Source of the DNA: an uncultured Methanosarcinaceae archaeon | GTDB taxonomy: Archaea > Halobacteriota > Methanosarcinia > Methanosarcinales > Methanosarcinaceae | Assembly (NCBI GenBank): GCA_963721455.1 | Contig: CAVRJG010000054.1 | Coordinates: forward strand, 32,001-96,000 | Length of the DNA: 64,000 nt | Direction: 5' to 3' | In this document: positions 34,739-38,661 of the stretch, in pieces | Layout of the letters: the number at the start of each line of letters is the position of its first letter | Position numbering within the stretch: position 1 is the stretch's first letter | The notes under the pieces: generated by a model | The model's database searches: none | What the model was told of the DNA's origin: nothing | The model's input: only the letters and a program-made list of their open reading frames with translations | Made by a program: the position numbers and the translations under genes

Positions 34739-37700
34739 TCACGACACTACCGAGTTTTTCAATTCCTCAAGATTTCTCTCACAAAAATTAATTAATCTTC
34801 GGTTTTCAGTTTCTTGAGCAATTTTGAGTGCATATTCATAATACTCAATTGCTTTTTCTGTCTCTCCCAAATAACTGTATGCTAATCCAAGATTTCCAAG
34901 TTCTATGCCTTCTCCTCGCCTGTTCTCTATTTTTTGATCAATTTTCAGTGCCTGTTCATAATATTCAATTGCTTTTTTTGTTTCTCCCAGCTCAATGTAT
35001 GCGTTCCCCAGATTTCCAAGCCAAATTCCTTCATTTCGCCTATCTCTTATTTCTCGAGCAATTTTCAGTGCCTGTTTATAATATTCGGTTGCCTTCTTTA
35101 CTTCTCCTAGCTCACTATATTCTATCCCCAAATTCCCAAGGTCTATACCTTCTCCTCGCTTATCCTTTATTTGTTTATGAATTTTGAGTGCTTGTTTATA
35201 ATACCCGATTGCCTTTCTCAGCTCTCCCAAATAATAGTATGCGTTCCCCAAATTTCCAAGGCAACTTCCTTCTACTTGCTTGTCCCCTATTTCTTGAGCA
35301 ATTTTCAGTGCCTGTTCATAATACTCAATTGCTTTTCTCAGCTCTCCCAGATTCTTATACTCTATCCCCAAATTTCCAAGGCAACTTCCTTCTACTTGCC
35401 TGTCCCCTATTTCTTGAGCAATTTTCAAGGCCTGCTCGCAATAATCAATTGCTTTTCTCAGCTCTCCTAGACCACTATATGCTAACCCCATACTTCCAAG
35501 GCAACTTCCTTCTCCTCGCTTGTCCCCTATTTCTTGATCTATTTTCAGTGCCTGTTCATAATACTCAATTGCTTTTCTCAGCTCTCCTAAACCACTATAT
35601 GCTAACCCCAGATTTCCAAGGAAACCTCTTTCTACTTGCCTATCCTCTAGTCCTTGAAATATTTTGAGTGCTTGTTCATAATACTCAATTGCTTTTTCTG
35701 TCTCTCCCAAATTATTATATGTTACCCCAAGGTTTCCAAGTTGATTTCCTTCTCCTTGCCTATCCTCTAGTCCTTGAAATATTTTGAGTGCTTGTTCATA
35801 ATACTCAATTGCTTTTTCTGTCTCTCCCAAATTATTATATGTTACCCCAAGGTTTCCAAGTTGATTTCCTTCTCCTTGCCTATCCTTTATTTGTTTATAA
35901 ATTTTAAGTGCCAGTTCATAATACTCGATTGCTTTTTTTGTCTCTCCCAAATAATTGTATGCTACCCCAAGGTTTCCAAGTTGATTTCCTTCTCCTCGCC
36001 TGTACCCTGTTTCTTGATCAATTTTAAGTGCCTGTTCGTAAAATTCAATTGCTTTTCTTGGCTCGCCCAAATTCCTATATTCTATCCCCAGATTTCCAAG
36101 TTGATTTCCTTCTCCTCGCCTGTCCCCTATTTCTTGATCAATTTTGAGTGCTTGTTCATAATACTCAATTGCTTTTCTCGATTCACCCAAATCACTGTAT
36201 GCTGACCCCAGATTTGCAAAGACCATACTTTCTACTCGCCTACTCCCTACTTCTCCATTAATTTTTACTGCATGCTCATAATATTTGATTGCTTCTTTTG
36301 TCTTTCCAAGATAACTGTATGCTACCCCGAGATTTCCTAGGTGAAGTTCTTCTCCTTGCTTGTCTCCCATTTCTTGAGCAATTTTAAGTGCCTGTTCATA
36401 ACACGCAATAGCTTTTCTCGGCTCTCCCAGATTCTTATACGCTATCCCCAAATTTCCAAGGCAACTTCCTTCTCCTCGCCTGTCCCCTATTCCTTGAAAT
36501 ATTTTAAGTCCCTTTTCATGACACTCGATTGCTTTTTCTGTCTCTTCCAAATAACTGTATGCCACCCCGAGGTTTACAAGTTGAATTCCTTCTCCTTGCC
36601 CATCCTTGATCTCTTTATAAATTTTAATTGCCTGTTCATGATACTCGATTGCTTTTTTTGTTTTTCCTGAATAAAAGTATGATACCCCCAAATTTCCAAT
36701 AATAGCACCACGACGTCCTTTGTTTTTCAGAAGAATTTCAGTCCCAAAATGATTTTCAGGCAGTAATTTTGAGTAGAGATCAATAAGTACTATGTAATTA
36801 CCCCAGAGATCAAGATATTCATGCAGATCATTGTCAAATATGATGTTGAAAGCCTGGTCATATTCTTTGGCCATGCAAGCATGGTGGTGGGCTTCAATTA
36901 GAGCCTGAATATCTTCTTTTTTTGCAGGTTTTTCAGGAATAGGTAGGAAAAGGTAATAATTCATTGCAAGCTTATGAACTTCTTTTTTGTTTTCAAGGTC
37001 ATCGTACGAGAACTCCTGTACCAGAGGATGAAGCCAATAATTTCCATTATGGTCCGTTTCGAGTAGAGACTTATCTCTCAGCCTTTTGTCAGCATTCCTT
37101 GGAGTATTTCCGGTAAACATTTCCCTGAGACCTTTCAATTTTACAGGCTCACGATAAACAGAGATACGCTCAAGGAATTCTTTTTCGTCTCCTGCCAATT
37201 TGTCGAATAGCTTTTTCGCCTTTTTGATTGTATTCTCTTTTTCTTCCTTATATATGCTCAAATCGCTAAGAATGTCAGCTACTCCATAATCCTTTACAAG
37301 CTTTACAAGTAGCTTCAGAGCGAAGGGATGACCATCCACACTTGTAGCCAATTCCTCCATCTTTTGATATCCAATTTTATCTAACCCGTTACTGGCAAGA
37401 TACTCAACTGCAAAATTAATCTTCAAGCCCTTAACATCTTGTTTTTCATCCTCTGTTATGTCAATTAAATCTTCGCCATTTTTCAACTTGGGGAGAACTC
37501 TACTCGTTATAATTATCTTTGCCTGGTAAGTATTGTTATGTAAACAAATGAAAAATAGGTCTATATATTCGTCTTGGAAATAAATATCATCTAGTATAGT
37601 CTCGAGATTGTCAAAAATAAGCCATACAGGATCTCTTGCCTGCAATTCGTCAGTGAGTTTATCGATATCCTTTTTTTCTACTTCTCGTTTTTCCTCCCTG

Positions 37701-38212
37701 AATTTTGCAAGATTTGGACAATTCAAGTATGAAGCTAGTTTTTCCAGAATATCTCCTACTTTAGCATCTTTATTTTGCCTAAAATCAAACCAGAATGGAA
37801 GAGGAACATTTGCCGTTCTTATATCGACTATAGCTCTTGCTAGAGTTGTTTTTCCAACACCACCTATTCCCTTAAATAGTAAAATCCGATGATCCTGGAG
37901 ATACATAAGAGCCTTATTTAAATCTTCAACTCGGTTTTGAGTGACAAACTTTTTTACTATAGGATCATAATAAGGAAGAGCAGAAGGGTTATAACTTTTT
38001 AATATTTTGCGATTCTCATTTTCCTTCCTTTTTTGTTCCAGAAAGTCCATCAGAATTACTAATACTTCACCCGAAGGTTCCTTTATCGTAATTTGGTAGA
38101 TGTATTCTCCAATGGCTTGCTGGCCTGTGTTATCACCTATGGAGACATTACCGTCTGCAACTATTCCAGTATTGACTATTATGTTTCTATTATTTGGAAG
38201 CTGTTCGCCCAT
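34739..38212 (-). CDS. NLR-like STAND NTPase (NB-ARC-type) with 16 TPR repeats and a short N-terminal amyloid-like motif
   Basis: Walker A GIGGVGKT, Walker B WLIFDNLE, IIITSR, GHPFAL, WLHP; 16 x 40-aa repeats. Confidence 0.92.
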   Translation of the reverse strand: MGEQLPNNRNIIVNTGIVADGNVSIGDNTGQQAIGEYIYQITIKEPSGEVLVILMDFLEQKRKENENRKILKSYNPSALPYYDPIVKKFVTQNRVEDLNKALMYLQDHRILLFKGIGGVGKTTLARAIVDIRTANVPLPFWFDFRQNKDAKVGDILEKLASYLNCPNLAKFREEKREVEKKDIDKLTDELQARDPVWLIFDNLETILDDIYFQDEYIDLFFICLHNNTYQAKIIITSRVLPKLKNGEDLIDITEDEKQDVKGLKINFAVEYLASNGLDKIGYQKMEELATSVDGHPFALKLLVKLVKDYGVADILSDLSIYKEEKENTIKKAKKLFDKLAGDEKEFLERISVYREPVKLKGLREMFTGNTPRNADKRLRDKSLLETDHNGNYWLHPLVQEFSYDDLENKKEVHKLAMNYYLFLPIPEKPAKKEDIQALIEAHHHACMAKEYDQAFNIIFDNDLHEYLDLWGNYIVLIDLYSKLLPENHFGTEILLKNKGRRGAIIGNLGVSYFYSGKTKKAIEYHEQAIKIYKEIKDGQGEGIQLVNLGVAYSYLEETEKAIECHEKGLKIFQGIGDRRGEGSCLGNLGIAYKNLGEPRKAIACYEQALKIAQEMGDKQGEELHLGNLGVAYSYLGKTKEAIKYYEHAVKINGEVGSRRVESMVFANLGSAYSDLGESRKAIEYYEQALKIDQEIGDRRGEGNQLGNLGIEYRNLGEPRKAIEFYEQALKIDQETGYRRGEGNQLGNLGVAYNYLGETKKAIEYYELALKIYKQIKDRQGEGNQLGNLGVTYNNLGETEKAIEYYEQALKIFQGLEDRQGEGNQLGNLGVTYNNLGETEKAIEYYEQALKIFQGLEDRQVERGFLGNLGLAYSGLGELRKAIEYYEQALKIDQEIGDKRGEGSCLGSMGLAYSGLGELRKAIDYCEQALKIAQEIGDRQVEGSCLGNLGIEYKNLGELRKAIEYYEQALKIAQEIGDKQVEGSCLGNLGNAYYYLGELRKAIGYYKQALKIHKQIKDKRGEGIDLGNLGIEYSELGEVKKATEYYKQALKIAREIRDRRNEGIWLGNLGNAYIELGETKKAIEYYEQALKIDQKIENRRGEGIELGNLGLAYSYLGETEKAIEYYEYALKIAQETENRRLINFCERNLEELKNSVVS
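34801..36720 (-). repeat. 16 x 120-bp TPR-coding tandem repeats
   Basis: 120-bp periodicity visible directly; 35641-35760 and 35761-35880 are identical. Confidence 0.92.
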
Positions 38213-38232
38213 AATCTCAGACCTAGCTTACA

Positions 38233-38661
38233 TTAATGTAATAAGAAAGCCCCAATTCCCAATATTGTAGCTATTTTTTTTGCAGGTTCGTAAAGCTCTG
38301 AAATATTTTCTATTGTTTTCCCCGCCCCTTTTACCATTTTAATGGCTTTTTCAAAACATTGTTTAATTTCTGATAGTTGGGGGTCTTCTTTTTTAACTTC
38401 TATAACAGCGGTGCTTATGTTGCCATTTACAGAATTTTGGTAATCAGGGTCAAGTCCAAGTTTATTAATTCCTTTTTGGAATTCAAGGAGATTTTCTCTA
38501 AGTTCTTTAAGATCAGGTTGGCTAATCGATTGAATTTGGTATTGAGTTATATTTTCTCCCACTGCAAATTGGCCACTGTTGTCACCAAAAGTCACATTTC
38601 CTCCGGCAACTATTCCCGAACCACCAGTAACCTTCCCTTCAGATTTGTTGTCTTCAATCAT
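38233..38661 (-). CDS. 142-aa protein: N-terminal amyloid-like motif plus helical C-terminal domain (candidate NLR effector)
   Basis: GAGGAGG RBS before ATG 38661; shares its motif with the downstream NLR; 20-nt gap to the NLR start. Confidence 0.85.
   Translation of the reverse strand: MIEDNKSEGKVTGGSGIVAGGNVTFGDNSGQFAVGENITQYQIQSISQPDLKELRENLLEFQKGINKLGLDPDYQNSVNGNISTAVIEVKKEDPQLSEIKQCFEKAIKMVKGAGKTIENISELYEPAKKIATILGIGAFLLH

Follow-up and report, generated by a model that had tools for sequence, protein, structure and literature searches.

The locus described here raises the question of why two neighbouring genes in a methanogen, one encoding a large NLR-like protein and the other a small protein unrelated to it over the rest of its length, should share an N-terminal glycine-rich segment. 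Both genes lie in a stretch of 64,000 nucleotides (the window) from an uncultured Methanosarcinaceae archaeon (assembly GCA_963721455.1, contig CAVRJG010000054.1), for which an original prediction had proposed a prion-like immune or cell-death switch.

An NLR and a small protein with a common N-terminal motif

The pair and its immediate surroundings comprise the following features.

34739..38212, minus strand: NLR-like STAND protein, 1157 aa, with N-terminal motif, one helix, NB-ARC NTPase and 16 TPR-type units (open reading frame and Pfam)
38084..38167, minus strand: NLR copy of the motif, residues 16-43, encoding GIVADGNVSIGDNTGQQAIGEYIYQITI (motif HMM E 1.3e-8; kept in the aligned NLR N-termini of other genomes)
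37301..37939, minus strand: NB-ARC nucleotide-binding domain, residues 92-304 (Pfam PF00931, E 2.5e-7, 30.7 bits against a cut-off of 23.5)
34810..36699, minus strand: tandem TPR-type repeats, 15.8 copies with a unit of 120 nt (40 aa) (TRF, period 120, 77% matches)
38233..38661, minus strand: small protein, 142 aa, with N-terminal motif, four-helix bundle and short hydrophobic tail (open reading frame, 100 homologues, PDC-M14B match, AF2 model)
38533..38616, minus strand: small-protein copy of the motif, residues 16-43, encoding GIVAGGNVTFGDNSGQFAVGENITQYQI (conserved in 94 homologues; pLDDT <= 60)
38239..38520, minus strand: helical bundle, residues 48-141 (helices 48-68, 72-89, 96-112, 121-134 and 138-141), with the hydrophobic tail at its end (AF2)
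38667..38673, minus strand: GAGGAGG, a Shine-Dalgarno-like ribosome-binding site 5 nt before the small-gene ATG at 38661 (read from the sequence)
38781..38788, minus strand: TTTATATA, a possible TATA box some 120 nt before the small gene (read from the sequence, by likeness to the archaeal consensus)

The two genes are collinear, with the small gene upstream and a gap of 20 nt between its stop at 38233 and the NLR ATG at 38212. The 142-aa reading of the small gene is right, since the GAGGAGG site precedes its ATG and homologues begin at the same methionine. The originally described coordinates and peptides proved exact when the window was re-read, as did the identity of 18 of 28 residues between the NLR and small-protein segments. 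When the whole proteins were compared by BLASTP, residues 15-49 of the NLR aligned with residues 15-46 of the small protein (21/35 identical, E 4e-8 despite compositional adjustment), and no second region of significant similarity was found, all other segments having E >= 0.13, in agreement with the original statement that the proteins are otherwise unrelated. A motif HMM built from small-protein homologues only was run on the 44,564 six-frame ORFs (>=40 aa) of the genome and returned exactly four at E < 1e-8, namely two small proteins and two NLR N-termini, with the next match at E 0.04; the genome therefore holds a second NLR/small-protein pair with the motif. The match between the two proteins is far beyond chance. 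At the DNA level, the two copies agree at 52 of 84 nucleotides and at 10 of 28 third codon positions, and the same codon is used for 10 of the 18 identical residues. Because the protein likeness has been kept while the DNA and its third codon positions have diverged, the copies do not stem from recent duplication or gene conversion.

The common segment is enriched in G, I, V, N and Q, its core containing G 19%, I 15.5%, V 9.6%, N 8.3% and Q 7.2%, with K at 1.3%, P at 0.9% and L at 1.4%. Richness in Q, N, G, V and I and poverty in K, P and L is the bias described for BASS and fungal amyloid signalling motifs. The window pair has this composition in common with amyloid signalling pairs, as it has the collinear arrangement of neighbouring NLR and small putative effector genes and the presence of the same 20-30-residue motif on both. 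Pfam holds HET-s, RHIM and sigma-motif models. Neither N-terminal piece matched an amyloid-motif family of these types in Pfam at E <= 10, and the RHIM likeness originally proposed thus found no support; the sole Pfam match of the N-terminal pieces was DUF4124, at E 0.17, to residues 1-50 of the small protein.

Both hallmarks of an NLR-like STAND NTPase are present in the larger protein: an NB-ARC/STAND domain, with the P-loop readable as GIGGVGKTT, and C-terminal superstructure-forming repeats. It also matches NPHP3_N (Pfam, 31.6 bits), and its TPR_12 match (Pfam) extends over 16 stretches with E 4e-172. Variation across the 16 TPR-type units is concentrated at positions 3, 4, 10, 13, 14, 18 and 32, and one adjacent pair of units is identical at 39 of 40 positions; we presume the array to be the ligand sensor. 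An enzymatic N-terminal domain is lacking, as originally described, residues 1-90 giving no Pfam match even at E <= 10.

Recurrence of the pair in Methanosarcinia

The small-protein family is present in 29 of 392 Methanosarcinia genomes, where we found 28 strong copies of the module, 23 of them stand-alone. Each of the 22 stand-alone copies examined is accompanied, on its own strand and no more than 2.5 kb away, by a long ORF that bears the motif; this ORF lies directly downstream in 20 cases, directly upstream in one and at 2.5 kb in one; partners checked with Pfam were NB-ARC or STAND proteins with TPR repeats. In 21 pairs, drawn from 16 genomes, each of the two partners has kept the motif, and in two pairs (G120 and G223) the NLR-side copy is barely detected (HMM E 0.02-0.04). 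Near-invariant positions are seen in 94 small-protein homologues (G13, G16, I17, V23, G30, Q31, G35, I38 and Q42), and near-invariant G/I/V/Q positions also in 14 aligned NLR N-termini; with third codon positions diverged, both motif copies are under constraint.

Of the two checks originally suggested, co-occurrence of the gene pairs is borne out, but co-variation of the two motifs is weak. Motif identity is 0.551 between true partners and 0.522 between non-partners (shuffle p 0.02, 21 pairs), a signal that the p-values overstate because the pairs are kin; by class, the same test gave p 0.002 for class A (n=14) and p 0.72 for class B (n=7). The likeness extends past the motif into the next helix in the L049 pair and among class A NLRs, so that what is shared may be an adaptor made of strand and helix and not purely an amyloid core.

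Anatomy, fusions and defence associations of the small protein

We presume the 142-aa protein to be the effector of the pair. Among its 100 homologues none matched a Pfam family, and a PDB profile search gave no significant match (best E 0.14). In an AF2 model computed from a 94-row alignment, residues 1-47 have pLDDT <= 60 and most of the bundle lies above 90, so that the motif is predicted to be disordered in the monomer, as expected for a segment that folds only upon assembly. About five residues separate motif and bundle. Conservation across the family extends to a SELYEPAKKI box and to the hydrophobic end, and the order of motif, helical domain and hydrophobic tail holds throughout it in alignment and model, in agreement with the reversed effector architecture originally put forward. 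The tail contains glycine and, at only ~12-16 residues, is short for a membrane span. Foldseek returned no match for the bundle at E <= 0.001 among HeLo, MLKL, Bell or other pore formers (best PDB E 0.23), and no N-terminal hydrophobic or membrane helix is present in the AF2 model; a pore-forming domain of the HeLo/Bell/MLKL type was accordingly rejected for want of fold likeness, sequence likeness and such a helix.

The motif also stands directly before the bundle in single-chain fusions with Roc-COR (L015-L017, L020), AbiTii (P0228), caspase (P0235) and EAD7 (P0197), and the motif-bundle module is fused to receiver-like N-termini as well. These fusion proteins carry a single motif copy, with no obvious templating partner. 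In closely similar Roc-COR proteins (L023, L024, L027), the bundle is replaced after the motif by a Pro-rich linker and two hydrophobic helices, an exchange that points to a membrane-directed output. The motif further occurs between TIR and NB-ARC domains, in a protein whose motif region is 30/50 identical to that of a neighbouring protease-TIR protein (E 4e-13). At five of six bacterial loci, a homologue of ~130 aa follows a protein of 472-687 aa that bears a related motif at its end (BLASTP E 4e-5).

A further link to defence is the PADLOC model PDC-M14B, which the small protein matches at E 2.6e-8 (residues 22-134, profile positions 153-262 of 267); all 94 aligned family members match it, over the C-terminal ~110 positions of the model only. 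A literature search for PDC-M14 returned no paper. The next gene upstream belongs to an abortive-infection family.

38958..39869, minus strand: AbiTii-domain protein, 303 aa (Pfam AbiTii, residues 3-186, E 1.8e-41)

Among the loci read in detail, only the window has an AbiTii gene beside the pair. The C-terminal third of its product is probably a diverged copy of the G-rich segment and helical module: it aligns end to end with P0228 (BLASTP E 3e-16), itself a 303-aa combination of AbiTii domain and module whose C-terminus matches the small-protein profile, PDC-M14B and the AbiTi model (the last at E 1.9e-6), and its direct match to the small-protein profile is weak (8.8 bits; hhalign probability 1.8%). 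Direct membership of the small-protein family in AbiTi was rejected, as 0/94 members match that model at E <= 0.01; the link is an indirect one, through P0228. With its helical-domain match, the P0228 combination and the adjoining AbiTii gene, the pair nevertheless recalls AbiT (AbiTi + AbiTii) of Lactococcus and PDC-M14. AbiT of Lactococcus is treated in PMC13064643 and PMC3710099, and the former review suggests a nuclease-like fold for AbiTi, which has no counterpart in our results on the small protein. Taken with the caspase, EAD7, TIR-containing and Roc-COR fusions, the AbiTii neighbour and PDC-M14B homology suggest a defence-like setting, which supports the immune context of the original prediction.

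Possible signalling mechanism and relation to known systems

We favour, at a probability of roughly 55%, a two-gene sensor/effector cassette in which the NLR senses a ligand, oligomerises and templates an amyloid-like motif on the small protein, leading to membrane damage and cell death. Ligand binding to the hypervariable TPR array would cause the NTPase to oligomerise and bring its N-terminal motifs together; these would fold cooperatively into a beta-sheet or beta-solenoid, that is, an amyloid-like nucleus of putative cross-beta nature, which would contact the same motif on the small protein, recruiting and templating it. Folding of that motif beside helix 1 might then loosen the bundle and free the hydrophobic tail, whereupon the effector would multimerise and damage its presumed target, the membrane, ending in abortive infection or cell death. 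Judging from the sequences, the shared motif is probably the means by which the receptor activates a cell-death effector, the signal presumably running from NLR to small protein.

A different account, possible but on the unlikely side, is that motif and next helix form a homotypic adaptor that assembles into a stoichiometric, non-amyloid complex, for instance by beta-strand augmentation and helix packing like Aravind's effector-associated domains (EADs) or Death-fold adaptors, the effector being clustered by induced proximity in the absence of templating. An EAD is a folded domain, some 60-100 residues long. The extension of the likeness into the helix, the weak pair-specific co-variation around a family-wide consensus, the retention of the motif in single-chain fusions and the presence of EAD7 in one family member all speak for such an adaptor; so does the logic of EAD1-11 themselves, for which the same small element on a core NTPase and a neighbouring effector, predicted homotypic coupling, lineage-specific paralogues and direct fusion of the same effector are described by Kaur et al. 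(eLife 2020, PMC7159879). Unlike EADs, however, the element here is a low-complexity G/N/Q/I/V segment of only ~30 residues, with the composition of amyloid signalling motifs, and is predicted to be disordered (pLDDT <= 60) despite a deep alignment. Membership in a described EAD family was rejected on account of this predicted disorder and the lack of any Pfam EAD match.

We consider it improbable that the small protein is instead a regulator, an inhibitor or chaperone-like cap silencing the NLR N-terminus through the motif, with the output lying elsewhere, for example in the AbiTii protein. Defence islands often contain two-gene systems of toxin/antitoxin-like logic, and the adjoining AbiTii protein may hold its own copy of the module; yet no further output domain is present in the NLR, the Roc-COR, caspase, EAD7 and AbiTii fusions have the bundle where a terminal effector would stand, the bundle is interchangeable with the two-helix hydrophobic domain, and among the loci read in detail the AbiTii neighbour is peculiar to the window. 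That a short, glycine-rich segment should match by chance, or by a recent, functionless local duplication of the kind named beforehand as a refuting outcome, is hardly credible and was rejected in view of the 21 conserved pairs in 16 genomes, the BLASTP score, the four-ORF HMM result and the divergence of third codon positions.

The templated cassette that we favour has counterparts elsewhere. In fungal NWD2/HET-S, the N-terminal motif of the NLR serves as template for the same motif on a helical effector, which is encoded by the adjacent gene and targets the membrane; HET-S has a C-terminal pair of pseudo-repeats and an N-terminal membrane helix, and its motif is unfolded in the resting effector. 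The window pair likewise has a motif common to the NLR N-terminus and the helical protein of the adjacent gene, unfolded in the monomer model, but the small protein has one N-terminal copy and a C-terminal hydrophobic tail, and neither Pfam on the N-terminal pieces nor the PDB profile search revealed a sequence relation to HET-S.

A study of 2020 already predicted amyloid-type pairs associated with archaeal NLRs, in which Methanosarcinales proteins with a Bell domain take part; two Methanosarcinales pairs are listed in its Table S2 (Dyrka et al., 10.1101/2020.01.06.895854), and the present pair is therefore not the first archaeal case. Bell/NLR pairs with BASS1-10 resemble it in their neighbouring collinear genes, which a very short gap separates, in the ~25-residue G, N, Q, V, I-rich motif found at the NB-ARC/TPR N-terminus and on a small helical protein, and in their aggregate-forming prokaryotic hosts, Methanosarcinales included. 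In Bell effectors, however, the motif is C-terminal and the hydrophobic helix N-terminal, whereas the window effector has the opposite order and was not a Bell domain in any test run (BASS motifs were compared by description only). That study's screen, which matched Bell C-termini with NLR N-termini only, could not have found a motif-first layout. A further counterpart is Bab/Agp with BASS11 of E. coli (Ibarlosa et al., 10.1101/2024.11.07.622273), where two adjacent genes within a defence island make up an abortive-infection system, a sensor with N-terminal motif and TPR repeats is coupled to a small helical death effector with the same motif, and amyloid formation, prion behaviour and phage defence have been shown experimentally. 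The Bab motif is C-terminal, and the bundle of the window effector has no significant PDB match in Foldseek. Relative to both systems, the archaeal pair is new in its motif-first effector layout and different effector fold, and a motif-bundle module that links sensors to a death effector through homotypic adaptor contacts would, by analogy, fit alongside them.

More tentatively, with doubt slightly outweighing confidence, we propose that the motif represents a new amyloid (prion-like) family and the bundle a previously unrecognised class of archaeal and bacterial death effector triggered from its N-terminus. If so, the effector would be fired through templating by unrelated sensors, which in Methanosarcinales would be NB-ARC/TPR NLRs and Roc-COR GTPases, and in Proteobacteria, Acidobacteria and Myxococcota a large protein that is probably membrane-bound. 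AbiT-like and PDC-M14 systems would be explained too, and experiment would for the first time have access to an archaeal immune switch of such a kind, one whose topology is the inverse of that in HET-S, Bell and Bab.

Beyond the NLR lie two genes of mobile elements.

34078..34665, minus strand: IstB (IS21 helper) fragment, following directly on the NLR on its downstream side (Pfam IstB_IS21, covering positions 57-238 of a 238-position profile)
33118..33903, plus strand: IS240/IS6-type DDE transposase (Pfam DDE_Tnp_IS240, E 2.4e-47)

The NLR/small-protein cassette sits in a low-GC, IS-flanked island of a Methanosarcina genome.

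The shared motif and its recurrence in Methanosarcinia

The larger protein of the pair, an NLR-like STAND NTPase, has an NB-ARC domain (residues 92-304) followed by sixteen 40-residue TPR-type units. Its gene lies next to that for a 142-aa protein, the presumed effector, in the following arrangement:

33118-33903, forward strand: IS240-type transposase, directly downstream of the NLR together with the IstB fragment
34078-34665, reverse strand: IstB helper gene, truncated and covering only profile positions 57-238
34739-38212, reverse strand: NLR ORF, 1157 aa
38233-38661, reverse strand: small-protein ORF, 142 aa
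38958-39869, reverse strand: AbiTii-domain ORF, 303 aa

As originally noted, both ORFs encode the quoted N-terminal peptides, with 18/28 residues identical, and outside the motif the two proteins are unrelated, since whole-protein BLASTP yields one significant segment alone (21/35 identical, E 4e-8). The NLR had also been said to carry no enzymatic N-terminal domain, and a Pfam search of its residues 1-90 accordingly matched zero families even at E <= 10; a homologue search from residues 1-75, uninformative because of its word index, returned a single match. A motif HMM built solely from small-protein homologues picked out four of the 44,564 ORFs of the genome at E < 1e-8 (next best E 0.04), namely those of the window pair and of a second pair located on a different contig. 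Since the motif DNA segments of the NLR and the small gene are 62% identical, and third codon positions agree in only 10/28 cases, the sequences indicate that the likeness is kept by selection on the peptide and is not a recent copy. This third-position divergence, the specificity of the HMM for four ORFs and the conservation of the motif across pairs together rule out a chance match or a local duplication. The second pair lies outside the window (contig C53 of the source genome G000, about 90700-93850, reverse strand) and consists of an intact small protein, 44% identical to that in the window, followed by an NB-ARC/TPR gene. The latter is broken by frameshifts and split over at least three frames, and is therefore probably a decaying copy.

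The small protein matches zero families in Pfam and NCBIfam. In a large protein collection it has 100 homologues at E <= 1.6e-27, in which Pfam likewise identified no family; their source names point to Methanosarcina, Methanosarcinales and ANME-2, with one source labelled 'Methanococcaceae archaeon', and a 98%-identical relative is named as Methanosarcina sp. By profile search, the family is present in 29/392 genomes of the class (11/231 of those at least 90% complete) and in 10/49 genera. We counted 28 strong copies of the module formed by the motif and the helical bundle that follows it: 23 stand alone, four are fused to Roc-COR GTPases and one sits behind a motif-TPR protein.

The expectation that motif-matched gene pairs recur among homologues was borne out in all 22 of the 23 stand-alone copies inspected (that on contig C232 of genome G017 was left out), each of which has a motif-bearing long ORF nearby. 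This ORF lies directly downstream on the same strand, with the motif at its N-terminus, in 20/22 copies; in one of the other two it is directly upstream and overlapping, and in the last it lies 2.5 kb downstream, beyond a gene on the opposite strand. Two pairs (genomes G120 and G223) have a weak NLR-side motif (HMM E 0.02-0.04), visible mainly by eye in the alignment. Every partner run through Pfam gave STAND-type NTPase and TPR matches, the NTPase being NB-ARC in the window NLR and in loci L035 and L049, and NPHP3_N/nSTAND6 in locus L043. The NLR N-termini fall into two classes: class A, to which the window NLR belongs, has a conserved helix after the motif, and class B (the type of the second pair) has a conserved YTNCTF...PDGS segment there. 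Locus L043 (G085:C213, 3672-10231, forward strand) holds a run of small gene, NLR, NLR, small gene and NLR, all with the motif and separated by gaps of a few bases, which looks like local cassette amplification.

The presumed effector module and its other partners

AlphaFold2 modelling of the small protein with a 94-row alignment (mean pLDDT 80, pTM 0.66) gave helices at residues 48-68, 72-89, 96-112, 121-134 and 138-141, mostly with pLDDT above 90. Because residues 1-47 have pLDDT 42-60 and no secondary structure, the conserved motif is predicted to be unfolded in the monomer, where it abuts helix 1. Two features are conserved across the family: a SELYEPAKKI box, and an end of some 12-16 residues that is hydrophobic and contains glycine. 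The model and this family-wide end thus agree with the layout originally proposed for the effector, a motif followed by a helical domain and a hydrophobic tail. Kinship with HeLo, Bell, MLKL or Rx-CC domains gained no support for the bundle, either from a Foldseek search of the PDB, which gave zero matches at E <= 0.001 (the best being generic helical bundles, E 0.23), or from a profile search of PDB sequences, which found nothing below E 0.14. The sole family link comes from PADLOC, where 94/94 aligned members match PDC-M14B, a candidate defence protein, over its C-terminal ~110 positions. An Atlas search returned hypothetical proteins from bacteria and a TCAD2 cluster (0.90); the Pfam TCAD2 model gave no match.

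Searching 1.84 billion cluster representatives with the small-protein profile identified 188 proteins at E <= 0.001, of which 150 were listed and 40 inspected, several of these 40 matching through the motif only. Every longer protein inspected whose match runs through the bundle has a G/N/Q/V/I-rich segment directly before it. The N-terminal partners in these fusions include AbiTii (P0228), caspase (P0235) and EAD7 (P0197) and, by reading, receiver-like N-termini and HEAT-like repeats. The C-terminal third of P0228 combines a G-rich segment with this same helical module, and it matches both PADLOC PDC-M14B and AbiTi. This architecture (~300 aa) was found by tblastn on 117 bacterial plasmid records, 90 of them covering at least 80%, and all are annotated as hypothetical. 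The window AbiTii protein aligns with P0228 from end to end, and for this reason its C-terminus is probably related, as judged from the alignment, to the small-protein module. A direct profile link between the two was dropped, with an hhalign probability of 1.8% and 8.8 bits in a single-target hmmsearch.

In Methanosarcinales, the module also forms the C-terminal end of Roc-COR (ROCO-type) GTPases (loci L015-L017 and L020). Closely similar Roc-COR proteins (L023, L024 and L027) instead carry the motif, a Pro-rich linker and two hydrophobic helices, and it is mainly because of this swap that we think the bundle may act at the membrane. Proteins with either ending would be GTPase-based counterparts of the NLR pair. 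The motif is likewise found on TPR-only proteins (L008, L025 and P0172), and L046 is a natural single chain with two copies, in the order motif-TPR-motif-bundle. In locus L049 a 1355-aa NLR that continues into TPR units has the motif between its TIR and NB-ARC domains; it is encoded on contig C5 of genome G265 directly after a second TIR protein:

5421-6821, forward strand: trypsin-like protease-TIR protein
6826-10890, forward strand: TIR-motif-NB-ARC-TPR protein

These two proteins share the second half of the motif and the helix that follows (30/50 identical, E 4e-13). There is no small bundle protein near the pair, and the motif adaptor therefore seems to serve other effectors as well.

Many ~130-aa matches have the same bundle and tail with another N-terminal consensus, N.GIQAN.V.AEVLAVG..A.A. 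Using a degenerate DNA pattern for this consensus, we located six loci (L053-L058) in species-representative genomes, from Burkholderia, Myxococcales, a proteobacterium, two Acidobacteria and an Acetobacteraceae, so that the two-gene unit spans Proteobacteria, Acidobacteria and Myxococcota. In 5/6 loci a large protein ending in a related motif (...N.GI.V.GGDVKAE.LAVG.GA.A.K) is encoded immediately upstream, and the sixth begins at the end of a contig; the small gene of L055 seems to be out of frame. BLASTP gave E 4e-5 for one bacterial pair. The three upstream proteins that are fully readable are 472-687 aa long, have hydrophobic segments by eye and match no PADLOC family, and the two of them compared with Pfam gave only a marginal TatA_B_E match, in one. 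The pairing rule thus applies in two domains of life, with partners that are unrelated.

Probable physical coupling and the amyloid reading

We put the probability that the motif physically couples NLR and effector at about 0.8, and regard a specifically cross-beta, templating mechanism as close to an even bet, if anything a shade below it; both judgements rest on the following features of the motif and on points that are against or open. The motif fits the amyloid reading in its length of ~30 residues, its single copy per partner and its disorder in the monomer model, and is built of short hydrophobic triplets alternating with G-x-N or G-D turns. Its composition (G 19%, I 15.5%, V 9.6%, N 8.3%, Q 7.2%, with K, P and L all under 1.5%) follows the G/I/V/N/Q-rich, K/P/L-poor bias described for BASS, the motifs of Bell-domain/NLR pairs, and for fungal motifs (bioRxiv 10.1101/2020.01.06.895854). 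An experimental precedent is E. coli Bab/Agp, whose shared motif is reported to assemble into fibrils and prion-like foci and to bring about abortive infection (bioRxiv 10.1101/2024.11.07.622273). Among the points against or open is that the shared region can extend into a helix. The likeness to RHIM that had been proposed gained no support: Pfam models of RHIM, HET-s and other amyloid motifs, and of the EAD families, gave no match on the N-terminal pieces at E <= 10. Strong pair-specific co-variation was not seen, motif identity being 0.551 between partners vs 0.522 between non-partners; with pairs that are not independent, shuffling gave p 0.02 over all pairs, with class A at 0.002 and class B at 0.72. 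Complex prediction for NLR(1-110) with the small protein, run without controls, scored 0.00 and speaks neither for nor against binding.

From these elements we infer a path of four steps. A ligand bound by the TPR array would cause the NTPase to oligomerise and its N-terminal motifs to cluster; the clustered motifs could then fold into a beta nucleus able to capture the small protein's own motif. Folding beside helix 1 might open the bundle and free the hydrophobic tail, and the assembled effector would damage the membrane, so that the infected cell dies or stops growing.

Motif-mediated (amyloid) signalling from an NLR-type sensor to a neighbouring death effector is established in fungi and, recently, in E. 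coli, and the window pair follows the same logic as the Bell/BASS-NLR pairs (2020), Bab/Agp (2024) and fungal NWD2/HET-S; it also overlaps the EAD adaptor concept as outlined in PMC7159879. For archaea, the basis so far appears to be a brief bioinformatic mention of Bell-domain pairs: the 2020 paper reports NLR-like proteins and Bell domains in Methanosarcinales, with two matching pairs from this group listed in its Table S2 (bioRxiv 10.1101/2020.01.06.895854), and the archaeal setting as such is therefore already known. Since that screen is described as comparing only Bell C-termini with NLR N-termini, it would have been blind to effectors with an N-terminal motif such as that in the window. 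Unlike the effectors of Bell/BASS, Bab/Agp and HET-S, the window effector has its motif at the N-terminus and its hydrophobic element at the C-terminus, an inverted polarity, and a PDC-M14B/AbiTi-like fold for which Pfam has no model. The motif family is probably another than those of the known systems, and the range of sensors that carry it (NB-ARC/TPR, TPR only, Roc-COR and TIR-NB-ARC) is different too. Our literature search found no description of this motif, the effector family or PDC-M14, and supplements outside its reach could hold relevant pairs. The locus is thus a candidate second, independent solution, new in its motif family, effector fold and polarity, and it ties the uncharacterised PDC-M14B and the plasmid-borne AbiTii-fusion proteins to the same logic. 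Two 30-residue peptides and a 142-aa protein are tractable parts with which to ask whether prion-like templating is an ancient, cross-domain trigger of cell-death effectors.

The repeat array and the genomic setting of the cassette

The TPR units of the NLR are encoded by a very regular tandem array (34810-36699, reverse strand), in which a 120-nt unit recurs 15.8 times with 77% DNA matches. Across the 16 units the scaffold positions are invariant and variation is focused at positions 3, 4, 10, 13, 14, 18 and 32 of 40, and one neighbouring pair is 39/40 identical, a pattern that fits recent unit duplication with focused diversification. Fungal NLR sensors carry hypervariable repeats, to which the seven variable positions of the 40 can be likened.

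The region at 29.5-41 kb of the window is a low-GC island (GC 0.28-0.39 vs about 0.5 outside), bordered by housekeeping genes: at one end those for ketol-acid reductoisomerase, a nitroreductase and a NUDIX protein, and at the other that for a glutamate-synthase-like oxidoreductase. The IstB fragment and the IS240-type transposase downstream of the NLR suggest that the segment holding the cassette is mobile or has been rearranged. At the edge of the island, a 183-aa ORF (40210-40761, forward strand) has several hydrophobic stretches and a weak PADLOC match to the '2TM effector' model (E 0.008).
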